Of a DNA stretch of 64,000 bases, positions 13,733-51,884 are shown piece after piece. Positions within the stretch are counted from its first letter, which is position 1, and each line of letters opens with the position of its first letter. The position numbers and the translations under genes are program-made. Below the pieces are notes generated by a model, which made no database searches, was not told where the DNA came from, and saw nothing but the letters and a program-made list of their open reading frames with translations. Source of the stretch: Trypanosoma brucei (lineage: Eukaryota); assembly GCA_000002445.1 (NCBI GenBank), contig CP000070.1, positions 608,001 to 672,000 on the forward strand, read 5' to 3'.

Positions 13733-15679
13733 TATACTTTTAATGCTCTTCCCTTGTTTATATTTATATTTTACTGCCCGTAACAAATGACTTCCTTTGC
13801 TTTCCTTCGTGATAATGTCTTTTTTTTTTTCGTTGTTTATTTTTGTTTGTTTTGAGATGAAATTGCAGTAGCAACAGGAGAAATAAGGGGGAAAGTATCT
13901 TTTTTTTTTCAAATTGAAGAACTACTTAGAAAAAAGACATCAAATAAATTGCAATACAACGCACATACGTATCATCCCCCTTTTTCCACACGTACAAACA
14001 AACCTTTTTCATCGCAGCCTTTTTGTGTGAGCAATAGTGGGGAAACCTATATATATATATATATTTCCATCCTCTCTCTCTCTCTCTTCCTCTCTTCTTT
14101 TTTTTTAAAAAAAAAAGAAAATTCTGGATATTTTCTTCCTTGCTTTTCTGTTTTTTCTTGTTTACCAGCTACTCTGTCCAGTTTGTTTCGCCTCGCCTCT
14201 TTACTCTCACTTTTTGTCTTCGCCCTTTTTTTTTTTCATCACCATATGATAATCAGCACGTGAAGAAAAAAGGAAACCATACGGTAAAATAACATTTTCA
14301 CTGATCCTCAGCGAAAATAAAGTTGGTAAACATTACGGTGAGGGACGGGGAACAAATAAAAATAAAAACAAAACAAAAGCAACAAGAACAAGAACAGGAA
14401 CAGGAGTTAAAAAAAAAAAATACCTGAAAGAGTAATATGAAATATTTTACAGGCAAAAATGGCGGAAAAGGAAAAAACAAACAAACAAATCAGACCGACT
14501 AATACGCATCATATAGCGTTTTAGGACCGCAAAATTCATTTTTTTTTTTAATTGCTCAGTAATACCGGTGAGTCGAGGAGGGGTAAAACTTCACACGTGT
14601 ACTTTCCTTCCTTTAATCTCGCCATCATTTTGTATTCCTAAAATATTTCCTGTTCGGTACATATCTTTCATCTTTTTTTTTTCTTTTGCCGACATTAACT
14701 CCCCACCCCCTGCACACAAACACACAAACAAGAAGGGGGAAAAAAAAAAACACGCAATGCAACACGCGCTCATTTTCTCAAGGACATGGACATCACATGT
14801 CGCGTATAGTAGCAACAAAAAATTAAATGAACAACAACAACAACAAGAAAAAAAAAAGAAGATGAAGGGTAAAAGAAGCAACATGGGAAATTTATAATAC
14901 AAACAACCATTTTCTCAATTCATATTCATAAACGTAAGGCACGATATAAACATTAGAAGGAGTTGAATTCCACTCCGTAATGTTAATAATATAATTACAA
15001 TCATATGCACTCCTCATTTCCCTCTTCCCATTCCTAAATAATAAAAGTAAAACCCCCTTTTTAAAAAAAAAAAATCAGAAGAAAAAAAAAAGATGAAAAC
15101 TAAAAACTAAAAAACTGAAAACTGAAAAATTAAAAGAAAAAACAACAAAGGTAGATGTAACATCATTGAGTATATATCACGCTAAACACCTCTTACTTCA
15201 TTCTCTTTCCCATCAAAGCAACACCTCCAGCAGCATTTAAGGGATAAAAATAAACAAGAAACCGCCAATTAATAATTAAAAACAAAAAAAACTGTTTACT
15301 ATAGCAGGAAACAAAAAGAAAGACAATCAAGGAAAATATTCGAAATCAGAAGCAACAGCAATTGGGAAGGATAAAACAAACAATCAAAAGAGGACCGAAC
15401 GGAAGGGGGTAAATAAAAACAAAAAAAAAACTAAAAGAGAAAAAAAAATTTTAATTTAAAAAAAAAGGGAAAGACGCAACTTCTCATATATAATGCGAGG
15501 AATGGACGCCATTCACCATTTTCATCTTCTTAACATTTTCCCTCTTCAAAACTGTCTCTCCCTCCCTCCCGTTGAATTCCTTTACTTATTTTTTAAAAAT
15601 TATTTTAGCTCTTTTCCTCTTTCGGTATTTCTCCCCCCCCCCTTTGCATTCATTTGTACGTATATGTTGGTGATATTTG

Positions 15680-15683
<4 letters not shown>

Positions 15684-15710
<27 letters not shown>
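15684..15710. repeat. (TA)n microsatellite
   Basis: An uninterrupted TA dinucleotide run of about 27 nt. Confidence 0.9.
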
Positions 15711-15715
<5 letters not shown>

Positions 15716-16395
15716 TTTCATATTATATATCTTATTAACAATATAAAAGTAACAAACCATAATCAATATTATTATTATTATTATTATCGGAGTGTGACGC
15801 TGCATCTCCTCCCTCCCCCTAACAAAGCTATAAAAATAAAAAAAAGCATGCAATTTCGCATTCCTCGTTTCTGCAGTCAACTCATCAAAAGACAAAGACA
15901 AAAAAAAAAAAAAGAGAGACGAATCATAACGACACGATGAAATGAAGAAAAGAGGAAAAAAAAATAACATTATAATACACAATCATAACATTTCCTTTTT
16001 TTCCCCCTTCACTTCTTATATATATATATATATATTATTTAGATATTTATATTTTAATATTTTTATATGTGTGTTTATATTTATGTATATTTTTCTTTCT
16101 CTATTGCAATAACATCAAAAACAACATAACCTTGTCCGTGAAATAAAAATAAAACAAAACATTTAACTACTGTACAAAAATCTTTTTTTTGCATAATGGA
16201 TACTAAATTTACATATTTTACATACAACTTTTGTGACATTAACATACAAACACATGACACTCATGACACATATACAACGATTAATAAACATATGACGGGA
16301 ATGCGGATAGGTTTTTTTTTCTTTTTTATTTAATTTCTTAAATTATTTTTTTATTTATTAAATAGGCACAAAAAGGGGGAGGGGAAAAAAAAAAT

Positions 16396-16423
16396 AACAA
16401 CAACATCAACATCAACATCAACC
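16396..16423. repeat. (CAACAT)n hexanucleotide repeat
   Basis: aacaacaacatcaacatcaacatcaacc. Confidence 0.8.
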
Positions 16424-17100
16424 GAAAACCAGAAAACACAATTGCTTTTTTTTTTAAAAAAGTCGAATGAAAAACCAAAGGCGAAACCACCGGCAGACAT
16501 GTATACATGTGTAAAAACACACGAACACAAATTAATCACACGAAAAAAAAAAGAAACAAAAGGGGGTTGAGGGAATAACAATTAATTTTTAAAAAAGAAA
16601 AAAAAGATGACGGTAGTAGTGATAAATAAATTTAAATGATGATTTGTGTTCGCCTTAACACCATTAATATAAATATATAAATATATATTTTTTCTTTTGC
16701 TTTATGAACTTTTTGTTAGTTTCTTCTTTTTTTTTTCTCCCCCCCCCCTTTAATTTAATGGAAAAGGGATGGCGGTAGCGGCAACTGCACAGTGGTAGTG
16801 ATGGTATTCTTTTTTTTTTTAATTATTTATTATTTTTTTTCGTTTGGTTTTGTTTTGCTGAAAGTGGTTTTGACAAGAGATTACTGAAATCAAACACAAA
16901 CACACGAACATATAAAAAAAAGGAAAAAAGGGGGAAAAACATGAGGAGCGTTCAAAAGGTATAAAACAACAACAACAACGACATAATCATCAATCTAACA
17001 AGGTGAAAAGGTGAAAAAGTAAAAAATAACAACAGTAAAAAAAACACATATTTATATATATATATTTTTTGGAACATGTAAATATGTTGGTAAAGTAAAT

Positions 17101-17124
17101 ATATATATATATATATATATATAT
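17101..17124. repeat. (AT)12 microsatellite
   Basis: Uninterrupted AT run. Confidence 0.9.
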
Positions 17125-18089
17125 TGCGGAAGAAAGGAAGTAAAAGTAAAAAGGAGGGAGCTCCAACTGGGCGAGGAAAGGTGATAACAAATCAAAAAAA
17201 AAAAGTAAAAGTAAAAAAACACTCCTCTCTCCAAATACAAAAAAAAAGATGTACAACGAGAGACATAAAGTAAAAAAAAAAAGATGAAAAGGAACATTAT
17301 TTCAATGTTAATTACACTCATTGGATTCCTCGCCCTCAATATAAAATCCCTTTACTCCCCTCGTTTTCTTTTTCTTTTTGCTTTTTACACTTTTTGTTTC
17401 TTCCATTACGATGCAGTCGAGTGACTCGCGCACTCGCCCACGCATGCATGCACGTAAACATAAATATATAAGTACATATATGTATATAAATATATACATA
17501 TATACACGCAAAAATACAAATGCGTAAATATGTGTGACGTTATACTCAACGTGAAGGTGAAACACAAAAAATTAAAAAAGAAAAAAAACGAAAATCTGCT
17601 CAAGCCTTTTTTTTTCCCCCTCCTTCCAAACGAAGTCCTTTGCACCCCCAACAATAACAACAATAAGAAAAAAAAAAGAAACGGAAGGGGCTGCCACATA
17701 TATCTTCTCTTGCTTTGCACCCATAAGTACATACGCACATAAACTTAGCAGAAATGAATCGCCGTGCTGAAGAGAAATGTCTCTCGTTTACGTAACAAAA
17801 ATAGAAGAAAAAAAAGAAGGAATCTGCAAAACTATCACACGCCATTGCGCTAAGAGTTAAAACGACCAAAAGAAACGAAACACTTTTTATGGACGCAACA
17901 CCCTCAACACGCTAAAAAAACTGACATATGTACGACCATCTCATTGTGTTAATTACTCACTTTTGTGTCTTATTTTCCCCTTTTCTTTCATCCTCCCAAG
18001 AATATTCTTCACAGCCATTATTATTTCTATTAATATTATTATTACCATTTCCTCTTTCAGTCCTCACAGAAGCATAAACACACATAAAC

Positions 18090-18114
18090 ATATATATATA
18101 TATATATATATATA
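18090..18114. repeat. (TA)n microsatellite
   Basis: Uninterrupted run immediately downstream (in minus sense) of the kinase gene. Confidence 0.9.
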
Positions 18115-18237
18115 GGGGAACAAACACAGCATGTGCACATTACCCACCCCATTCCATCCCCACACCAAAACGCAAACATGCCACAAAAAGGGAAAATAAA
18201 ACAAAAAAAACAAAAAAAAACAAATCCGCCCAGCAGA

Positions 18238-34311: not shown

Positions 34312-35625
34312 TTAGTTGTACACCATGTATTTGGCTGTTGCGCTGAACTTATGGTGGCCCTTAATCACTTTGTTAACGGCATCCAAGAAGTCTTTCTCGT
34401 TAATTGTCTTGCGGCGCGCCCTGATGGCAAACATGCCTGCTTCCGTACAGACCGACCTCAAATCGGCACCCGTTGCGTTCGGGCACAACCTCGCAATCAG
34501 TTCGAACCTGATCGCCTTCTCACACGAGAGTGACTTGGCGTGGATGCGAAGGATCTTTGTTCGACCCTCCAGATCCGGCAGACCAACCTCAAGTTTGCGG
34601 TCCATGCGACCTGGGCGTGTGAGGGCGGGGTCTAACGTATCAGGACGGTTCGTTGCCATTATAACCTTTATATTACCACGTGAGTCGAAGCCATCCATCT
34701 GGTTCACCATCTCAAGCATCGTTCGCTGAATTTCGTCGTCACCATCACCACCACCTCGAGCACCACCAACAGCATCCACTTCATCAAAGAAAATGATGGC
34801 TGCCTTCTTGGTCCTTGCAAGCTGAAAAATCTCCCGAATCATTCGGGCACCCTCACCAATATAACGCTGAACCAGCTCGGAACCAATCACACGAATAAAA
34901 GTCGCGTCCGTACGGTTGGCGACAGCCTTCGCTAAGAGCGTCTTCCCCGTCCCCGGTGGACCGTAGAGCAACACACCCTTCGGTGGATCTATACCAAGCT
35001 GTGTGTATTTCTCTGGGTTAGTGAGGGGTAATTCCACGACCTCCCGAATGCGGTCGATCTGCTCCTTTGCTCCACCCACATCATTATATGTAACGTCTGG
35101 CTTTTCTTCTACCTGCATCATCGATACAGACGGGTCAACACGAGGTGGGAGGGGTATTTCGATGTGAATGCTGGAATACCCAACTAACACACCCACACGC
35201 ATGGATTCCTCAATGTCCTGACGGGCCACGCGGTTGCCAAGTTTCACCACGTACTTGGCTGTGTCACGAATGGCTACAACGTACTTCGCATCGTCCTGAC
35301 CTTTGTTTATGATACGGGTGCAACGAGCAACATGAAGGGAGTTCTCAGACCGCATCACCTCCTGGTCACTGTTTAGATCCCACTGTACGGGTGGTGCAAG
35401 TCCAAGTTCATTATCCCGTGTGCCAGCGAGTTTGTTAACCGCCTCTGCCTTTGTCTTCACAAACTCCTCCAACTCCTTCACCGTGGCGTGGTATGGTCCC
35501 GAGCCATATAGTTTCAATAGAGCAATGTCATCTTGGTCAAGTGGAATAATCTCCTTTTCTTCTTCATTTTCCCCCTTGATGCGCACAGTGTTCTTGGTTT
35601 GACATCCTCCCTTCTCGCTTGCCAT
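34312..35625 (-). CDS. RPT1: 26S proteasome regulatory ATPase subunit RPT1 (PSMC2/S7)
   Basis: Full-length AAA+ match including the RPT1-specific segments [27 protein letters not shown] and C-terminal [11 protein letters not shown]. Walker A GPPGTGKT, Walker [12 protein letters not shown] at 35623-35625. Confidence 0.9.
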
Positions 35626-38587: not shown

Positions 38588-39763
38588 TCACGCCACTGCT
38601 TCCTCTTCAAAGACGCGATCCACCTGCAGCGACTGCTTGTCATATTTGTGGTCAGAGCCACCACGGCCAGCTGCATCCAACTCCGCTACCCATCCGGCAT
38701 ACGCATCCGGATGTGCATCACAAAACGGTAAGTAAGGTTTGATGTCTAGAACGGGTGTGCCATGGAGAAGGTCGTGATCAGCAATGTGAACCTCCAAACC
38801 GCGCACATCGACAAGACGCACGCACGAAAGTCCAATAAAGTTCGGGCGGTGGGGACTTCGAGTGGCAAATACACCTCGCAGTTCACTATCACGTGGGGGG
38901 ACCAACATCGTTTTGAAACCAGCAGAGCGCTCCGCGCCCTGACGAGGGCGTTGGCGCTTCGCCCCGACGGCAACTTCTGCCCTATCACCCTTCACACCGC
39001 CCGTATCATCCGCCGCAGTGGCGCTATCTTTTGCCTGCGTGCACTCTTCGTCAACAGGAAGAGCATAGGAAAAAGAGAAAAGCACCCAAATGTATTCGAA
39101 ACCCTTAAGGTCCCTCACCGCATTCTCTAAGCCAACGCGAAGCCTAATAACTGCCGTTTGTGGCATGAAGTTTTCCGTGTGTGGTTGTCGTGGGGCCGAA
39201 ATGTGGGTTCGCATAAGACTGTAGACAATCCCAACACCACATATAGAATATGGTTGAAGTTTCTCTGGACTGAGCACGATACGCACAAGCCGATTTGCGT
39301 GCATTACGGCACGATGGAACGCTGCTTCATATGCATCCACCTTATGTTTTGTGCGCTGTAACCGTTGCTCAATACAATCCGCCACATCTTCTGGTGTGCG
39401 CAGCCGGTCAAAAAAATACACGGCGCTAGCGGGAGCGGTGATACAATCTCGTTTCAACCCGTCATCAGCATCACCTGAGGAAACAAGGGAAGGTGGCGGG
39501 TCAAACAAACGGGCAGTGATGCGATTGGACTTAACATCAGCTACTAACACCTCCCCTGGCCAGTAGGGTAAACCGGGGGGACGAATCCAAACAATATCAT
39601 TTGGAAGGAAATAATGTGGTCGAACACCGAAACGCATAGGCCGTGGTCGCGTCTTACCGCCCTTCAAAACAACATCCTCGCCGTGTGCATCTTCAACTGG
39701 CTCTGGTTGAGAATCGCGATGGGAATCAACTCGGATAAGTGATCTTTCAGTACTCTCCTCCAT
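38588..39763 (-). CDS. PWWP-like domain fused to a TsaA/TrmO (YaeB, UPF0066) tRNA methyltransferase-like domain
   Basis: The N-terminus carries a PWWP-like core (DIVWIRPPGLPYWPGEV...AVYFFDRL). The C-terminus carries TsaA-family signatures (PRQP, YIWVLFSFS, GVFATRSPHRPNFIGLS, GTPVLDIKPYLPF). The track ORF starts at GTG; the ATG (MEESTERS) is at 39761-39763. Confidence 0.65.
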   Translation of the reverse strand: MEESTERSLIRVDSHRDSQPEPVEDAHGEDVVLKGGKTRPRPMRFGVRPHYFLPNDIVWIRPPGLPYWPGEVLVADVKSNRITARLFDPPPSLVSSGDADDGLKRDCITAPASAVYFFDRLRTPEDVADCIEQRLQRTKHKVDAYEAAFHRAVMHANRLVRIVLSPEKLQPYSICGVGIVYSLMRTHISAPRQPHTENFMPQTAVIRLRVGLENAVRDLKGFEYIWVLFSFSYALPVDEECTQAKDSATAADDTGGVKGDRAEVAVGAKRQRPRQGAERSAGFKTMLVPPRDSELRGVFATRSPHRPNFIGLSCVRLVDVRGLEVHIADHDLLHGTPVLDIKPYLPFCDAHPDAYAGWVAELDAAGRGGSDHKYDKQSLQVDRVFEEEAVA

Positions 39764-40305: not shown

Positions 40306-41232
40306 TTACGTCTGCTCGTTTTCAGGAACTAAGTTTGTGATGCGTAACTTTCGCTCCACTGACTCGTCATACGTTCCAATCAAATAACCAGCCTCCTCCT
40401 TCCATGACTCCCCATCCGAGTCAATGAAAAACTTTATGTAGTGAATCTCCCCGAACACAGGGACTTCCTTCAGTAAAGTGAACCCCAGTTTCGATGTGAA
40501 GAGTTGGATGCTAGAGAAGTTGTTCGCACGCACCTTAGCAACAAAACGGGAGGCCCGAAGCTTGTCAAGTGCGTAACTCATAAGAAGTCTCACAGCCTCC
40601 TCACCGAACCCGCGGCGCCGAAAGTTCCCTTCCGCGATCATCGCCTCCACTTCGAAACAACGCCCGCAATCTGCCGCCGTTGGATTTGTTGTGGTGGGTT
40701 CCACACTGCTTATTTTATCACTGCTTAAAATATGAAAAGCAGTGTCAACTGTGCTGTCAGTGCTCCCATCGCCCTCCATTTCACCCTCACCACTGCTAAG
40801 AAGGAAAAGATTGCAGTCACCAATCATAACATACAGCCCCTCCTCACCATCTCGTGTCGTTAATGCTGTCGCCGCGTCCACCGGTATTTTGCTATGCTGA
40901 CTGGCACCACCGGTGGATGAGTGAAGTATTTTCTTACCGCCTTCCACATTTTCCTCTGCTGTGGCACTACACTTCCCACAAACCCCTTCATGAACCTCCA
41001 TCTCACCCTGTCGTACAGAGACTGGGGCAAGAATAATGAACGTAAGTTTGTCCTCTGCGCAGAGCCACTCCTGCTGATTTTCATACTCCTCCTGCAGCGT
41101 CAGTGGTTCACTGGCTGTGAGTTCCAACATTTTGGGGTCGCTCATCCAGCAGTGGTAGCGGGGCACATGGTGGTGCAAGTAAGGCACCAGCCGCAACCGT
41201 TGGCCAGAAACTAACACATTTTTATTGTTCAT
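40306..41232 (-). CDS. NAT9: GNAT N-acetyltransferase, NAT9-like
   Basis: The N-terminal NAT9 signature (RLVPYLHHHVPRYHCWMSDPKMLELTASEPLTLQEEYENQQEW) and acetyl-CoA-binding motif (RRRGFGEEAVRLL) are present. ATG at 41230-41232. Confidence 0.75.
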   Translation of the reverse strand: MNNKNVLVSGQRLRLVPYLHHHVPRYHCWMSDPKMLELTASEPLTLQEEYENQQEWLCAEDKLTFIILAPVSVRQGEMEVHEGVCGKCSATAEENVEGGKKILHSSTGGASQHSKIPVDAATALTTRDGEEGLYVMIGDCNLFLLSSGEGEMEGDGSTDSTVDTAFHILSSDKISSVEPTTTNPTAADCGRCFEVEAMIAEGNFRRRGFGEEAVRLLMSYALDKLRASRFVAKVRANNFSSIQLFTSKLGFTLLKEVPVFGEIHYIKFFIDSDGESWKEEAGYLIGTYDESVERKLRITNLVPENEQT

Positions 41233-43107: not shown

Positions 43108-43788
43108 TCACTCCGCGCCTTCCGTAGCATCATCATCATCTGCATCACTGAATGATTGTTCAAGCGACTCTTCAACAACACGCCTCACACGCTCCTCATA
43201 CTTGTCCCTGCTTTGGACATACATACTGGCCGCCTCAGCGTTGGCTGCAGAGTTAGGGTTTGGATCTGAAAGTAGTGAAATAATCATCAAGAGAACCGAC
43301 TCCACGCTCAGTGACGGACACCATTTGTCTTTCAGTGTATCAAGGCAGATGTCCCCATTTCCATACACATTTGGGTGAAATATTTTTGTTGTAAACCGCA
43401 CAGAAGGCGGAGAAAAGGGATACTCAGGGGGGAATTGCAAAAGCAGTTTGAACACACCACCTTCCCACGCAGTCCCATCTGGACCAAGAACGACTGCCTT
43501 CCATTGGAACAAATCGCCCTCCAGCGGCCTCGTCCAAAACTGTTCGCACTTGTTCATATGAATAACCTGCAAGTCGTTCATGAGTCGACGTTGGGCACTG
43601 GCAAAGTTATGTGAATTCTCTACCGTTGCTTGAGGCTGGGGAATAGACCGAACAACCGCCTCCGCCTCCGCCTCCGCCTCCGCCGTCACCTCAATCCCGT
43701 GCGGTGCCGTCTCTTCTCCGTCTATAGCAACCCTGGCAGTTTGCCGAGAAATATTAATGGCTGCTTCATTGGTAGATTCATTATCCAT
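43108..43788 (-). CDS. RAD6: ubiquitin-conjugating enzyme E2, RAD6/UBE2A-like, with ~70 aa N-terminal extension and acidic C-terminal tail
   Basis: The UBC fold has the HPN motif and catalytic Cys (FKLLLQFPPEYPFSPPSVRFTTKIFHPNVYGNGDICLDTLKDKWCPS). It is closest to RAD6 (AQRRLMNDL; SDPNPNSAANAEAASMY). The tail is SFSDADDDDATEGAE. ATG at 43786-43788. Confidence 0.8.
   Translation of the reverse strand: MDNESTNEAAINISRQTARVAIDGEETAPHGIEVTAEAEAEAEAVVRSIPQPQATVENSHNFASAQRRLMNDLQVIHMNKCEQFWTRPLEGDLFQWKAVVLGPDGTAWEGGVFKLLLQFPPEYPFSPPSVRFTTKIFHPNVYGNGDICLDTLKDKWCPSLSVESVLLMIISLLSDPNPNSAANAEAASMYVQSRDKYEERVRRVVEESLEQSFSDADDDDATEGAE
43656..43684. repeat. perfect (CCGCCT)n hexamer repeat inside the E2 CDS, encoding (AE)n
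   Basis: ccgcctccgcctccgcctccgcctccgcc on the plus strand; in minus sense it encodes TAEAEAEAEAV in the N-terminal extension of the RAD6-like E2. Confidence 0.85.
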
Positions 43789-45350: not shown

Positions 45351-46688
45351 CTATGCGTAATAGTTCAAGCTAGATTTTTTGCGTGCTTGCACAGCCGTAA
45401 CCCCCTCTGCGAAGTCCTCGTGAGCCACATAAACCCGCTCGTTGCGGAGTGCCAACATACCGGCCTCGACACACACAGCTTTGAGTTGTGCCCCATTCAT
45501 ATCCTCCGTCATGCGGGAAATCTCTTCAAAATTCACATCCCCATGAAGTGCCATGCGACGGGAATGAATTTGAAGAATGTGAGCGCGGGCCTCCTCATCC
45601 GGAAGAGTGAACTCCACCTTTCTGTCAATGCGCCCGCTACGCAACAGAGCGGGATCAAGGACATCGATACGATTCGTTGCCGCAATAACCTTCACGTCGT
45701 CGGTGCTTCCAAAGCCATCAAGCAGCGAAAGGAGCTCCAACATCGTGCGCTGCACTTCCCGTGACCCGTGTTTACTTCCCTCGTCCGAACGGCGCGAGCC
45801 GATAGCATCGAGCTCATCAATAAAAATAATAGTTGGTGCTCTCTTCTTCGCAAGAGCAAAGGCGTCTCGAAGGATACGCGCTCCCTCCCCAATGTACATT
45901 TGTACGAGCTGCGGTCCAGCGAGGCGCAAGAAGCAGGCATCAGTTGCGGCTGCACACGCACGGGCCAGCATGGTCTTTCCAGTACCCGGAGAACCATAGA
46001 GCAGCACGCCCTTCGGTGGTTTAATACCAATACGCACATATTTTTCCTTTTCCGTAATGGGAAGCACGACGGCCTCAATCATTTCATTAATCTGTTTATC
46101 GAGTCCTCCCACATCGGTGTACTTTTCTTTGGGTTTCTCTACAATCTCCATCGCCTTCACACGGCTGTCGTACTCCGGTGGAAGTTCTTCGAGTACAAGG
46201 AAGGTATCCTTGTTTACACCAACGAGGTCCTGTGGGGAAAGTTTGTTTGCGTCAACAAGGCCAACAACAGGAAGAAAAACCGTCTGCCGGCTTGATGTCT
46301 TTATTATAGCGCTCTTTTGTGGATGTCGAGACTTTTTCTTTCCAACATTCAACTCCTCCACATCCTGGTCGTCTGCCTCAAGATCCAGTACCTCTGCGAT
46401 GCTGGCAACGAGATATGGAAGCTTGTTGCTATCGCGCACACGTTTCTGGCTCTCTTCCACCTCCCTTCTCAACCCCGCCAATTCCGAAGACATGGTTCGC
46501 TCCTCATTCTTCAACTGATGTATTTCACGCTGAAGCTGCGTTGAGCGGTTGCGAAGCTGCTGGTTGGTGAGTGAGTCGATGTTCTCCAATTCCTCCGGTG
46601 ACAACTGCGCCGCTGCTGACGCGTCACTGGTGCCCCCCCTGTCGCCCTCCGCTGCCCCACCGGTTGCCCTTGCGGTGTCCTGCGTCAT
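45351..46688 (-). CDS. RPT5: 26S proteasome regulatory ATPase subunit RPT5 (PSMC3/S6a)
   Basis: RPT5-specific segments [31 protein letters not shown] and C-terminal KKSSLNYYA are present. Walker A GSPGTGKT. The track ORF starts at TTG (46727); the ATG (MTQDT) is at 46686-46688. Confidence 0.9.
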
Positions 46689-46734
46689 CTCGGTAGCTGG
46701 AGGATGAGCAAATATACGCTCCAACAACTAATCA

Positions 46735-47396: not shown

Positions 47397-50300
47397 TTAT
47401 TCAATAAGAAAAAATGTGAAGGGCCCACCAGCGCTTCGTGTCACAACAACACGTTCGCCGGTTTCTCCTGATGTATGGGATTCACCCAGTGACCTCTGGG
47501 TTTGATTATGTAAGAAATTGAGCCGAGCGAACAAACTCTCCCCTCCCACCTCCCTCTGTTTCCCACATTCCTGCGACGCCCCATCTGTCAACCGAAAGCA
47601 GAAGGCCCACTTGCCACCACATGCATCCTGTGCACAAAATAATATCCCTCTATCAGCCACCACTGTCGCAGGCGCCCGCTGCAAACGTACAAATGGTGCA
47701 ACTATCGGCACATTTTTATTTCCTACTTCAGAAACTCCCGTCGATGCGACGGGAGGAATGGCAACCAGCTGAAGGTCCCACCACCCACAGTGGAAAGAGT
47801 GCGAAACCGCGACGAGTGTTAGTCCACTTAGGAAGGAAATGACAATTGCGTAAAGCTGACAGTCACCAGCGGGAAGACGAACACACTGAATGAGGGTGGT
47901 TTCAGTGAAAAAGGGAGTGACATCCACATGACACTCGTCCGCAATAACATTTCTGAGGTCGAGCACGACTTTTGTATTGTCCCTCGATGCATGATCCACT
48001 CGATCCTCACACGAGGGAAGAAAACGGGCAACAAGGTCGAGGCCAGTGGCGGAAGTCACAAACAAAAGAGCACTCGTCACGGCACGCAACACACCACTCG
48101 AGCAGTACATCATCTCACCTCTACAAAGCGTGTGCCCAGCAACCTGTTTCTCCAAGTGATTTAGTGTCACATGTTGTTGGGGGCAGACAGACGGCATAAA
48201 AGCGAACAGCGGGTGACCGTCAGTTGTCAAAAAGCAAACATCAGTGACGCAGACAGCAATCACATGCTCAGTTCCCTCGCTCGACTCAGATAGAAGCCAC
48301 GGCACCTGTAGCAGCAGAAAGACAGAGTTAACACCTGCTGAACCAACGTCTCCATGCACGTAAGGAGTAGTGCTAGCGGAGAGAAGAAAGAAAAAACTGC
48401 TGTCATACATCGCAAACGGTCGAAGCATGCACGCAAATAGCGACGGGAAGGCCCCTATAGTTTCTGAAGGGGATGCTCTCAAGTCACCCACCCACAACAC
48501 CTTTCCCCCTGCGGTCACAATGATGGCGGTGCTCCAACAAACGAACAAAAGATTGATTTCATCAAGACTGTCGAATGTGTTTCCCCCTGCTTTGACATCC
48601 ACACCTCCACCACCAACTCTCTTCCTATTCCGCATGGCCGCCATGCAGACGTCCACTGTTGCTGACGAAAAGAGTAATGTCAACGCCGCGCTCATATCCA
48701 ACTCGTCCGCTGAAGGCCAATGAACTTTTGAAAGCCACTTGTAGTTCTTTTCACTACGGGAGACAGCTGGAAATAATTCAGATGCTGGCTCTGATGAAAA
48801 ATGCCTGCAGAGGTAAATGTCACCTGATCGAAATACAGCAATCTCCTCCCCTCCCACATGCTCCTCCCCGTCGTCAAGTACATAACCGCAAGTAGCAGCC
48901 TTGGCCGGGGGGAGGATGCAATGACTCAGCACATCAAAATCCACACTACGTTGAGCCCCAACACTGTAGTAAATATCTGTGTCGCTTGAGAACTGTAAAG
49001 TGGGCCGGATGCCAACACGGGGCCATAAGCATCCTGAGTTACATTGCTGTTTCCCTGAAACACGTTGACCCGTTTCTCCGTATTTCAGTTGGAGGGCACC
49101 CTTGTCCTTTGCTAACAGTTCCCCATGGGTGAGAGAGCAGTACATGTGTCTCACATCCCTACTATATGTACCTTCAACAGTTTTGTCGTCAGGTTCATCA
49201 CAAACAACAGAAGTCACAACGGATCCTTTACCGCCGTCCCATCGCACAGCCACTAACTGACTAAGATGCTGAAACGGGTTACACCCTCGTGGTTCACATA
49301 AGGTTACAACACGGGCTAATATGCTGAAAACTACGGGGACATCACCACTCGGGCGCTTCCCCTTATTGCCCAAAGGAGACGCATTAGATATCACCTCCAA
49401 GAAGAGAAGTGCACCCCCACTGCGAATGGCCGCCACCGCAGCAACAATCCGTTGGACCCCTGAAGCCGCACCACTGACACGCCGTTCCTCAAACGGTTCC
49501 ACAGCACAACTTACAGCGCTCTCAATAAATCCCCCAACGGGACACCGAGCCACTTCGCCGCACTCACCGTAGAGAACAAAATCAAATCCTCCCCCTTTCT
49601 CGCAGACCTCCATTGCACGCACCGCTACAGGTTCCCACGTTGCGTAGGCACTGTCTTCCCGTAGAAAACTGCTCCGGGGGTACATAACATGAGCTGGGCG
49701 AAGAAACACACCCAAAACGTCACCAGCACATGCCTTAGAATAAGAAAGGAAGCGAGTTGGTGGGGCATGAGATGTTGCGGCATCACTAACGTGCAACAAA
49801 AAGCAAGGATGAGCGAGTGTGAGAGCTTCAAGACGCCATGGACCGTTCATACAAAAGCCGCTAACCTTTTCACGCCAACCATTCCACGAGCACTGACCCC
49901 TAAGGTCCGACTCACTTTGATCCACACTTTGCCGCCGCATCGACAGTGCAAAGATGGAAAGACGGTCAACAAGAGCATCGCCTTTTACATGCATATGCTG
50001 GTGCAAAACAGCCAACAAAGGGTACTGTTGTTCGTAGTCGTAGGAACAAGGCAACCAATGGACGGCCCGCGCCTCACGCACAGCTGCAAACGAGTCGTTG
50101 GTCCACCCAGCAACTTGCATAAAAAGTGCGCCAGCGGCTACTTGGCTGAAGCCACGCAGTTCACGCCACTGTTGCGAACTACCATCCCTGTCATCTGCAG
50201 TGCCCTTTTCCCACCACACTAACTCAACGTACTCCACCCAACCCACAACCCGCACGAACGCAATGCGCAGAACAGCCAAATGCCCTCTGTAAGAATTGCT

Positions 50301-51014
50301 ATGAGGCCCCATAGATAACGGCCGATTCTGTCTCTGTAAAGTTGATGATGAGGATGGCGGTGGGAACGTAGGAACCGAGGCAGCGGTTGCAGCGGCACCA
50401 GTAACAGCAGCGTCATCGCAACAATCAATGACGGAACTTATCGGCACATAATTTTGCCGGAAGGCATCTGCAGAACACGCCAAACCACCAGCGCCATTGC
50501 GAAACCACCGAGCAGCCAGCAGTGACGCCTTCCCGAGCGATCTGACCTCCAGTCCGGGGCCAGGGGTTGCGGTGTTAAGCGTAAATGACGCAAAAACAAG
50601 GCAGTCACACTCGAGAACAAAAAATACAACGACATGCAAACCTTCCACACGCACCGTTGAGGCGGCAGCAATACCACAATAACCTCCACATAGAGAACAA
50701 ATGAGGCATTTCTTCGCTGCTCGTTGTTCTTTTTTAACCTCCACCGCAGCAACACGCTGCAACTCACACAGAAGTGTACCGCCACGGTCCTTATGGGCGG
50801 CACTCCCACCATCATGACCTCTGCTTACTTTATCGGGGAAAAATACCTGATCCCGGGACCCCGTCCCACTTTTGTCACTACTCACAAGAAATAATATCTC
50901 GGAGTCACCAAAAACAAAGACATCAACTACCGAATTACTAGTTTGCTGGAACCGCTGCGAGAGCTGCGACGATGATGATAAAAGTGGGGGTTTTGCATGA
51001 AGCAGGCGTTGCAT
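47397..51014 (-). CDS. hypothetical large protein
   Basis: A ~1200 aa uninterrupted ORF in PTU orientation with non-repetitive composition. The track ORF starts at GTG (51062); the first ATG (MQRLLHAKPP) is at 51012-51014. No domain recognised. Confidence 0.5.
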   Translation of the reverse strand: MQRLLHAKPPLLSSSSQLSQRFQQTSNSVVDVFVFGDSEILFLVSSDKSGTGSRDQVFFPDKVSRGHDGGSAAHKDRGGTLLCELQRVAAVEVKKEQRAAKKCLICSLCGGYCGIAAASTVRVEGLHVVVFFVLECDCLVFASFTLNTATPGPGLEVRSLGKASLLAARWFRNGAGGLACSADAFRQNYVPISSVIDCCDDAAVTGAAATAASVPTFPPPSSSSTLQRQNRPLSMGPHSNSYRGHLAVLRIAFVRVVGWVEYVELVWWEKGTADDRDGSSQQWRELRGFSQVAAGALFMQVAGWTNDSFAAVREARAVHWLPCSYDYEQQYPLLAVLHQHMHVKGDALVDRLSIFALSMRRQSVDQSESDLRGQCSWNGWREKVSGFCMNGPWRLEALTLAHPCFLLHVSDAATSHAPPTRFLSYSKACAGDVLGVFLRPAHVMYPRSSFLREDSAYATWEPVAVRAMEVCEKGGGFDFVLYGECGEVARCPVGGFIESAVSCAVEPFEERRVSGAASGVQRIVAAVAAIRSGGALLFLEVISNASPLGNKGKRPSGDVPVVFSILARVVTLCEPRGCNPFQHLSQLVAVRWDGGKGSVVTSVVCDEPDDKTVEGTYSRDVRHMYCSLTHGELLAKDKGALQLKYGETGQRVSGKQQCNSGCLWPRVGIRPTLQFSSDTDIYYSVGAQRSVDFDVLSHCILPPAKAATCGYVLDDGEEHVGGEEIAVFRSGDIYLCRHFSSEPASELFPAVSRSEKNYKWLSKVHWPSADELDMSAALTLLFSSATVDVCMAAMRNRKRVGGGGVDVKAGGNTFDSLDEINLLFVCWSTAIIVTAGGKVLWVGDLRASPSETIGAFPSLFACMLRPFAMYDSSFFFLLSASTTPYVHGDVGSAGVNSVFLLLQVPWLLSESSEGTEHVIAVCVTDVCFLTTDGHPLFAFMPSVCPQQHVTLNHLEKQVAGHTLCRGEMMYCSSGVLRAVTSALLFVTSATGLDLVARFLPSCEDRVDHASRDNTKVVLDLRNVIADECHVDVTPFFTETTLIQCVRLPAGDCQLYAIVISFLSGLTLVAVSHSFHCGWWDLQLVAIPPVASTGVSEVGNKNVPIVAPFVRLQRAPATVVADRGILFCAQDACGGKWAFCFRLTDGASQECGKQREVGGESLFARLNFLHNQTQRSLGESHTSGETGERVVVTRSAGGPFTFFLIE

Positions 51015-51884
51015 CCCCCTCTGCTCTCCCTCTCTATGGATGGTGGTGTAATAAAAGCACACCTTGCGTTATCGGTTTAGTTGTTGATAAAAGTTAGCCG
51101 AAATATTAAGCACACACCCGTGGAATGCACCACAGTTTGAAAAGTGTTTTTGAGCCGCAGCTGATGCTTTTTTTGTGCCCCCCTCGATCTCTCCAAGACT
51201 CTCTTCCTTTAACTCTTTCTTTTCCTCAATAAATCCAAGGGGCCTCTCTTCGTGGTATAAACTACCACCCGATTCCCTTTTTCTCTTCGAGTCTCGGGTG
51301 TTGAGGGTTCAACTACCCGCAAACGCTCACAAAATAAGAAGGACGAAGAGAAGAGGAGAAATAAACCAATTATGTGGAGAGATTAAAGACAAAAATTGCA
51401 CACACGAAGTAAAGGCTGGGCCTCAAAAATACAAGATGCCGAACCGGATGAAAAGAAAAATTAAACAACAACGTTGCGAATCCGCAGAAGTGAGATAGAT
51501 ATTTTTTCTTCTTTTCCTTCAAGAAAGAGAAATGTTATCTTTTTTTTTTCCTTTCTTTTGAAAGAGATTCATCGTTTTGCCATCAGGCAAAACAACATCA
51601 CTCACCTGTGACACCTGTGACAAGGGAAGTGAGGGCCAATGCAGGTACGAAAAAAATAAAGTGCAGAAGCTAACAACCGCCTAAAGGTTGCGAAACATGC
51701 ATACTCCCCCGCAGTCACGTCCTCAGTACCACCGTGACTCGACGTCAAGCCCGTACATTTCTCGTGGCAACACGAAATAGGAGACCTTACATTTCCCCCC
51801 CCTCCCTCCCTCCCTCACCAAAAAGAAAAAAAAACGACAAACAAGCAAGAAGAATATCTGAAAGAACAAGTTCAGAGATCCCCC

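Follow-up and report, generated by a model that had tools for sequence, protein, structure and literature searches.

The window analysed here is a stretch of 64,000 nucleotides from Trypanosoma brucei (contig CP000070.1, positions 608,001 to 672,000), and its minus strand carries at 38588..39763 a gene in which a PWWP domain is joined to a catalytic domain of the TrmO (YaeB/TsaA) family. The gene seems to encode the euglenozoan TrmO, a class VIII beta-barrel methyltransferase dependent on S-adenosylmethionine (AdoMet). Most likely the enzyme converts N6-threonylcarbamoyladenosine at position 37 of cytoplasmic tRNA (t6A37) to its N6-methylated form m6t6A37, and the PWWP domain would be a docking or positioning module rather than a histone reader. 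Taken as a whole, this explanation of a euglenozoan short-form TrmO appears to us about evenly balanced between right and wrong. New here is that the catalytic half corresponds to a short form of TrmO without the C-terminal TrmO_C domain, the closest relatives of which are proteins of Planctomycetota.

The gene is a single uninterrupted open reading frame (ORF) that starts with ATG, encodes 391 amino acids (aa) and ends with its stop codon at 38588-38590; the mechanical ORF reaches further, to 39775, owing to a GTG that precedes the ATG by four codons. The protein shows 100% identity at 100% coverage to the T. equiperdum protein P0001, annotated as 'Uncharacterized protein family UPF0066', and the T. 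brucei gene with the UPF0066 description is Tb927.7.2520 (gene ID from the supplement of PMC13210174). Its T. cruzi orthologue is C4B63_76g41 according to the pairing in a study from 2026 (PMC13210174). The gene is divided as follows:

38588..39763, minus strand: complete coding sequence of the PWWP-TrmO fusion protein, 391 aa and stop (ORF list; identity to P0001)
39623..39763, minus strand: N-terminal tail, aa 1-47, unconserved and predicted to be disordered (predicted local distance difference test, pLDDT, 44-51; mean column conservation 0.16)
39401..39622, minus strand: PWWP beta-barrel, aa 48-121 (strands 57-60, 68-76, 81-86, 107-111 and 116-117)
39269..39400, minus strand: helical part of the PWWP module, aa 122-165, highly conserved (helices 124-135 and 146-159)
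39056..39268, minus strand: part 1 of the TrmO_N/TsaA beta-barrel, aa 166-236 (PF01980; alignments to the Protein Data Bank (PDB) entries 7btu, 1xqb and 2nv4)
38915..39055, minus strand: low-complexity insertion in the barrel, aa 237-283, predicted to be disordered (pLDDT <50; conservation 0.15)
38681..38914, minus strand: part 2 of the TrmO_N/TsaA beta-barrel, aa 284-361, ending with A356-G357-W358-V359 (homology to bacterial TrmO)
38591..38680, minus strand: C-terminal tail, aa 362-391 (invariant D371-H372-[K/R]373 and R383)

Thus a PWWP module of about 118 aa (48-165) is followed by a TrmO part of about 196 aa (166-361), the insertion included, and by a tail of 30 aa. The PWWP module contains the motifs IVWIRPPGLPYWPGEV (aa 57-72) and AVYFFDRL (aa 114-121), and the TrmO part contains APRQP (aa 190-194), YIWVLFSFS (224-232), RSPHRPNFIGLS (302-313) and GTPVLDIKPYLPF (335-347).

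The Pfam family TrmO_N (PF01980) matches the protein with E=8.4e-30 and 103.8 bits (cut-off 26.8), in two stretches that are separated by the 47-aa insertion at aa 237-283, the length of which differs between species. The same insertion splits the match to the NCBIfam equivalog TIGR00104, which with 92.0 bits lies narrowly below its cut-off of 93.25. Solved TrmO/YaeB structures were recovered from the PDB both by sequence with phmmer (7btu, 8e-17; 1xqb, 3e-14; 2nv4, 5e-13) and by Foldseek with the full-length model (2nv4, 8e-8; 7btz, 1e-7). In Escherichia coli the activity of TrmO needs Q25, R92, D125 and K136 (Kimura 2014, PMC4132733), and the equivalent residues Q22, R82, D111 and K122 bind AdoMet in the structure from Archaeoglobus fulgidus (PMC4132733). 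A gap-free alignment to this protein, AF0241, places R82, D111 and K122 at R302, D331 and K342, and Q22, which corresponds to Gln25 of E. coli, at Q193 by means of the common PRQP motif (A190-P191-R192-Q193-P194). All four residues (Q193, R302, D331 and K342) are invariant in the 43 aligned orthologues. TrmO enzymes act as dimers in which both subunits take part in the AdoMet site (PMC4132733), and the invariant K342 would be the lysine that reaches the pocket from the other subunit. The clade of euglenozoan and planctomycete proteins has a set of Cys and His residues (H330, H334, C348, H351 and H372) which is invariant or nearly so and is located near the AdoMet pocket as well as in the tail. 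The other bacterial TrmO matches have mostly V/L, D, A and F/Y at the first four of these positions, and most of them have a His opposite H372. This set could form a metal site or alter the active site.

The N-terminal part was more difficult to assign from a single sequence: with T. brucei alone the match to the Pfam PWWP family (PF00855) has 16.1 bits (E=0.017) and so falls short of the gathering score of 25.6 bits. The assignment is firm at the level of the family. The Pfam domain matches 37 of the 43 orthologues at E<=0.01, the best with 6e-9, and a profile of the N-terminal family (alignment A2) matched 71 PDB sequences, the 60 listed ones being without exception PWWP-domain proteins. Among them were NSD2 (7e-9), DNMT3B (2e-8) and MSH6 (2e-6) as well as HDGF and LEDGF, and also TFIIS2-1 of T. 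brucei (PDB 2m1h, E=4e-5). From a set of 1.84 billion representative proteins this profile first recovered about ten whole-profile clusters of the fusion family (E<=1e-24); after a gap followed the next-best matches, and the nine of these scanned with Pfam were all PWWP proteins (E down to 3e-68), none with a TrmO domain. The N-terminal structure model has a pLDDT of about 97, consists of a five-stranded beta-barrel followed by a helical bundle and recovers PWWP structures in structure searches.

In T. brucei the eponymous motif reads P66-Y67-W68-P69, of which P66, W68 and P69 are invariant in all 43 orthologues. Together with D56, V58, W59, E71, L86, P90, F118 and D119 they form a set of (near-)invariant residues. 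The mean column conservation amounts to 0.61 in the PWWP barrel and 0.60 in its helices, compared to 0.68 in the first half of the catalytic domain. Conserved residues of the helices are R134, Y145, E146, F149, N157 and R161, and the conserved basic residues of the module are R61, R85, R120, R134 and R161. The module as a whole carries almost no net charge in kinetoplastids and is only mildly basic in diplonemids. There is no low-confidence linker between the PWWP helices and the TrmO barrel, and the full-length model reaches a predicted template modelling (pTM) score of 0.71 despite about 100 disordered residues. These pTM and pLDDT values suggest that the PWWP module and the barrel may pack together as one rigid body. 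A PWWP structure solved with single-stranded DNA (6kco) was also among the profile and structure matches and is a precedent for the binding of single-stranded nucleic acid by this fold. The loop between strands beta3 and beta4 (aa 91-106 of the window protein) is variable in length. Leishmania, Leptomonas, Angomonas and Phytomonas carry an insertion of 40-80 aa there (alignment A1, columns ~290-370), between the equivalents of aa 90 and 107, with a first part rich in Lys, Arg and Glu such as 'LAANLAEEQRKYRRREEARLGKMHKKK'; the sequences of Trypanosoma, of bodonid-like organisms and of diplonemids are without it.

The two-domain architecture is distributed over Trypanosoma, Leishmania, Leptomonas, Angomonas and Phytomonas, and it exists also in the diplonemids Diplonema, Rhynchopus and Lacrimia and in the euglenid Ploeotia vitrea. 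Every one of the more than 40 orthologues, which come from independent genomes and transcriptomes of three euglenozoan classes, retains the N-terminal domain. The fusion must be old and cannot be an error of annotation, for kinetoplastids, diplonemids and a euglenid all have it; judged from these sequences, it predates the split of the three main euglenozoan classes. That a wrongly called start or a faulty join in the assembly linked two genes is practically out of the question: the only point in favour is the sub-threshold Pfam score of the single T. brucei sequence, and against it stand the one uninterrupted ORF, a model that is confident and continuous over the domain junction, and the conservation data, by which this explanation is already refuted. 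The proposal of the first-pass annotation, made from the sequence alone, that a PWWP-like region of about 110 aa precedes a TsaA/TrmO domain of about 200 aa in the C-terminal half is hence borne out in both assignments and in the order of the domains. The sizes are approximately right, every motif quoted for either part is present in the translation, and the fusion is genuine; failing profile searches or orthologues lacking the N-terminal region had been named as grounds for rejection, and neither of these applies. A divergent fusion of a PWWP-like and a TrmO domain with 35% identity is encoded in a Logan assembly (P0070, 441 aa). It has 'PPWP' instead of 'PYWP', is without C348 and H351, possesses a long acidic C-terminal extension and may represent a deep branch of the Euglenozoa or belong to an organism of another group.

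PWWP domains that read methyl-lysine do so with a cage of three aromatic residues. Alignments of hidden Markov models to NSD2 and MSH6 place the cage positions, as a mapping at the level of sequence, at L65, W68 and L86 in T. brucei. The NSD2 cage consists of Y233, W236 and F266, and either Y233A or F266A abolishes binding of a ligand which occupies the methyl-lysine pocket. The MSH6 equivalents are Y103, W106 and F133. Among the 43 orthologues W68 is invariant, position 65 is Leu in 24, Phe in seven, Tyr in six, His in five and Ile in one, and position 86 is Leu in 41 with one Cys and one Tyr. The T. brucei domain thus keeps one of the three cage aromatics and no orthologue keeps more than two, so that the three-aromatic cage of PWWP domains is absent from the family. 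Because L65, W68 and L86 stand where NSD2 has Y233, W236 and F266, the cage appears degenerate and methyl-lysine reading is doubtful, which argues against a simple reader model.

The methyl-lysine reader role which the first-pass annotation had envisaged for the domain is weakened by these residues, among them the Leu at position 86, and the targeting of a methyltransferase to chromatin, which it had considered as a consequence, is pure speculation. The gene is not among the candidate readers of a survey of T. brucei chromatin factors from 2021, which tested only TFIIS2-2. It had also regarded the architecture as undescribed. The PWWP domain of Tb927.7.2520, however, was already noted in 2008, when it was found with a profile hidden Markov model of PWWP (Uzureau et al. 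2008, PMC2610381). In the literature searched, no paper discusses the fusion or puts either of its domains to a test. In the literature search this paper on TFIIS was the only one with the gene ID in its main text. A review of 2021 names only TFIIS2-1 and TFIIS2-2 as PWWP proteins of T. brucei, and the 2026 paper on T. cruzi tRNA modifications treats the gene simply as TrmO (PMC13210174). The ID was not found in the supplements of the TrypTag paper, a weak negative as the text is possibly incomplete. Identity with PWWP1, a subunit of the SPARC promoter complex, was considered and is ruled out, PWWP1 being Tb927.11.13820.

Outside Euglenozoa the best matches to the catalytic half are P0068 and P0069 with 43% identity, the BLASTP match to P0069 (E=2e-51) covering the whole catalytic part. 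P0069 is encoded on a contig of 552 kb beside DnaA- and MutY-type genes (L001 3001-3735). A relative at 62% identity is a 196-aa ORF, likewise beside a MutY-type gene, in the Planctomycetota metagenome-assembled genome (MAG) JANQLF010000013.1 (L002 1995-2585). These planctomycete short forms share with the euglenozoan TrmO the DHDLLHG motif, C348, a terminal PDHRW motif and the absence of TrmO_C. As for H351, P0068 and P0069 retain it, and the ORF of the MAG has a Trp instead. The short forms differ in that they end right after 'PDHRW[DE]' and contain no PWWP domain and no barrel insertion (46 gap columns in the relative aligned). None of the 53 best non-euglenozoan matches carries a eukaryotic source name. 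Human TRMO shows 31% identity to the T. cruzi orthologue over 167 aa with E=1.6e-12 (PMC13210174 Table S1), which is lower than the similarity to the bacterial proteins. These comparisons hint that the euglenozoan catalytic domain may have come from bacteria by horizontal transfer, and the sequences suggest that a bacterial-type short TrmO would later have gained a eukaryotic PWWP domain. P0072, a protein of 323 aa from a metagenome in the European Nucleotide Archive, is a member of the short-form clade with an N-terminal rhodanese domain (PF00581) in place of PWWP. This second fusion implies that the short-form clade took up an accessory domain at its N-terminus on more than one occasion.

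With regard to the activity, data from T. cruzi are available. Normalised values of m6t6A from liquid chromatography-mass spectrometry amount to 0.65 and 0.51 in T. cruzi tRNA; two lines of human cells gave 0.24 and 0.26, and E. coli gave 0.14 (PMC13210174 Table S3). With the human and E. coli TrmO as queries, BLAST identified only one homologue in T. cruzi, which is orthologous to Tb927.7.2520, and Tb927.7.2520 itself was scored as a loss-of-fitness gene from public RNA interference target sequencing data, in which the reads dropped from 236 to 87 (PMC13210174). Formation of m6t6A37 is the most likely activity because m6t6A occurs in T. cruzi, its TrmO homologue is the only one there, the fitness data point to an important gene and the AdoMet site is intact. 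In the proposed mechanism the catalytic half would work as a short-form TrmO with a full AdoMet pocket, without TrmO_C and with a tail that carries the invariant D-H-K/R. The PWWP-fold domain, probably joined N-terminally before the euglenozoan lineages diverged, would be rigidly attached to the catalytic barrel, its cage degenerate, and would most likely dock or position either the substrate tRNA or a protein partner, which is the least secure step. Docking or positioning is favoured over methyl-lysine reading because the canonical aromatic cage is degenerate. Given the degenerate pocket, targeting to chromatin is the less likely view of the protein, and an enzyme that modifies tRNA in an unusual architecture is the likelier one.

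Some results weigh against this explanation. In E. coli the TrmO_C domain with its DPRxxY motif is essential, and D194A and R196A abolish m6t6A (PMC4132733). The window protein gives no match to TrmO_C (PF18389) even at E<=10, and the Pfam domain matches none of the 43 orthologues. Archaeal short forms are also without TrmO_C, and archaeal tRNA has never yielded m6t6A (PMC4132733). For these reasons a short form is not guaranteed to be an m6t6A maker. In addition, both TrmO_C and PWWP are missing from the short forms of the planctomycetes; the PWWP domain thus need not replace TrmO_C and could be a eukaryote-specific targeting device. Furthermore, simple electrostatics, with a charge of about zero in kinetoplastids, give no support for a general nucleic-acid-binding surface on the PWWP module. 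The 30-aa tail occupies the site of the approximately 105-aa TrmO_C of the long bacterial forms. A comparison of the C-terminal parts with 49 of these forms by hhalign aligned 24 columns with a probability of 98.9 and ended at AGWV, so that the homology stops 24 residues past DIKPY. The tail has its own D-H-[KR] motif, which is invariant in all 68 members of the clade. In a MAFFT alignment D371-H372-K/R373-Y/W374 faces the 'P-H-P-Y' that bacterial proteins have in their DPRxxY region, a match too short to serve as evidence. The view of the tail as a remnant of TrmO_C was rejected, as the homology found by hhalign reaches only to AGWV, and is kept as an idea only.

The PWWP domain could also be a scaffold which mediates protein-protein contacts or stabilises the dimer, for example by docking the t6A machinery or a tRNA-processing factor, without touching nucleic acid or chromatin directly. 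The almost neutral net charge of the module in kinetoplastids would fit, the strongly conserved helix residues listed above suggest a specific interface, PWWP was first proposed as a protein-interaction domain (Stec 2000, as cited in a later paper), and the dimeric nature of TrmO enzymes with AdoMet sites shared across subunits (PMC4132733) agrees with it. The same pattern of conservation would result from tRNA binding or from packing on the catalytic barrel, and no partner or interaction data for Tb927.7.2520 were found in the literature searched; we consider the scaffold unlikely, with perhaps the weight of a serious minority view. A working histone methyl-lysine reader, tethering the methyltransferase to chromatin in order to act on tRNA genes co-transcriptionally or on chromatin-associated RNA, is somewhat less probable still. 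The fold is genuine and strongly conserved, W68 is invariant, and the orthologues with Phe or Tyr (13 of 43) or His (five of 43) at position 65, to which all aligned diplonemids belong, have two aromatic cage residues. The PWWP domain of trypanosome TFIIS2-2 was reported to bind H4K17me3 and H3K32me3 (PMC8638923), and planctomycete relatives without an extra domain fit a eukaryote-specific targeting add-on. These points are opposed by the two leucines of the T. brucei cage, at whose equivalent positions single substitutions in NSD2 kill binding in the methyl-lysine pocket, and by TbTFIIS2-1, another trypanosome PWWP protein, which binds neither DNA nor methylated histones. Moreover, Tb927.7.2520 was not chosen as a candidate reader in the chromatin-factor survey of 2021, and its ID was not found in the supplements of that survey and of a nuclear proteome paper, weak negatives given that the text is possibly incomplete.

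A more daring idea, to which we grant a small chance, is that the domain might bind chromatin or a methyl mark via a non-canonical pocket centred on W68 and so recruit an essential tRNA methyltransferase of bacterial descent to tRNA genes or other chromatin. If true, m6t6A or another methylation of nascent RNA would be coupled to transcription in Euglenozoa, and a direct link would lead from histone marks to the modification of the tRNA anticodon loop. Similarly improbable is a different substrate for the TsaA-type barrel, another RNA or a small molecule instead of t6A37 in tRNA, with a separate enzyme as the maker of trypanosome m6t6A. In favour of it are the lack of the TrmO_C domain that E. 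coli TrmO requires, the archaeal short YaeB proteins with no known m6t6A product (PMC4132733), the narrowly missed cut-off of TIGR00104 and the clade's own invariant Cys/His set, which possibly indicates a different chemistry or a metal site. It is countered by the abundance of m6t6A in T. cruzi tRNA, where no other TrmO homologue was found (PMC13210174), by the completely intact AdoMet ligands and by the resemblance of D371-x-[K/R]373 in the tail to the essential D194-P-R196 of E. coli, a match of three residues only.

TrmO enzymes constitute a small and recently defined class of methyltransferases whose mode of tRNA recognition is unsettled, the C-terminal domain being only presumed to bind tRNA. 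The Euglenozoa carry a natural variant in which exactly this domain was lost and a PWWP fold was gained and conserved for a long time. The role of the PWWP domain would show either that the fold of a 'chromatin reader' has been re-used for an RNA enzyme or that tRNA modification is tethered to chromatin. The enzyme differs in architecture from human TRMO and appears to be of bacterial descent; this would matter should it prove essential.

In the 64-kb window all large ORFs lie on the minus strand and the intergenic region upstream of the fusion gene contains polypyrimidine tracts, two features that fit a polycistronic unit of trypanosomes. Its neighbours have housekeeping functions unrelated to it and encode Rer1, a GNAT acetyltransferase, two ATPases of the proteasome, an E2 enzyme and a pentatricopeptide repeat protein, and tRNA genes are absent from the window. 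As expected in trypanosomes, the genomic context is uninformative for function. The upstream neighbour at 40306-41232 encodes a GNAT acetyltransferase of 308 aa with a GNAT match at aa ~188-257 only, and the approximately 100 residues before this match include a long stretch rich in Ser, Thr, Gly and Glu. Two different genes for regulatory AAA-ATPases of the 26S proteasome, one of them PRS7/RPT1-like, are located 10 kb apart on the same strand (34312-35625 and 45351-46727), with a gene for an E2 ubiquitin-conjugating enzyme at 43108-43788 between them. A minus-strand ORF of 1221 aa at 47397-51062 has no Pfam match at E<=0.001. Between two minus-strand genes an ORF-free AT-rich region of about 4.3 kb (13913-18237) has a GC content of 0.30-0.32 compared to ~0.47 elsewhere and holds microsatellites of the (AT)n type besides short A-rich repeats; the GC content drops once more, to 0.37, at 54-56 kb.

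Compared to known systems, the window protein shares with bacterial TrmO (YaeB/TsaA; E. coli, Pseudomonas aeruginosa 7btu) the class VIII TrmO_N barrel, the four conserved AdoMet ligands, the PRQP, RSPHRPN and GTPxLDIKPY motifs and homology through the 'AGW' just past the barrel. It differs by the lack of TrmO_C and DPRxxY, the 30-aa D-H-K/R tail, the 47-aa disordered insertion and the N-terminal PWWP domain, and furthermore by H334 for the usual Asp of 'LDGTP' and by C348 and H351 for Ala and Phe/Tyr. Human TRMO (C9orf156) is a eukaryotic member of the same family, forms m6t6A37 in tRNASer(GCU) and also has an internal insertion (Kimura 2014), but it keeps TrmO_C with DPRxxY and has no PWWP domain. 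The PWWP domains of NSD2, DNMT3A/B, MSH6, BRPF1 and LEDGF/HDGF, which are H3K36me readers and DNA binders, possess the same five-stranded barrel with helices, have the core motif GD-VW---G-P-WP in common with the window protein and are recovered by the profile and structure searches. In the window protein two of the three cage positions are Leu, the charge is about zero instead of basic and the helical part is unusually conserved; the domain is fused to an RNA-modification enzyme instead of a chromatin enzyme. TFIIS2-1, TFIIS2-2 and PWWP1 of SPARC are PWWP proteins of T. brucei as well, but they are encoded by different genes, contain no TsaA domain and have nuclear, transcription-related partners. 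The protein described here is therefore not a new kind of system but a previously noticed variant of the TrmO family, composed of a short catalytic domain and a cage-degenerate PWWP domain.

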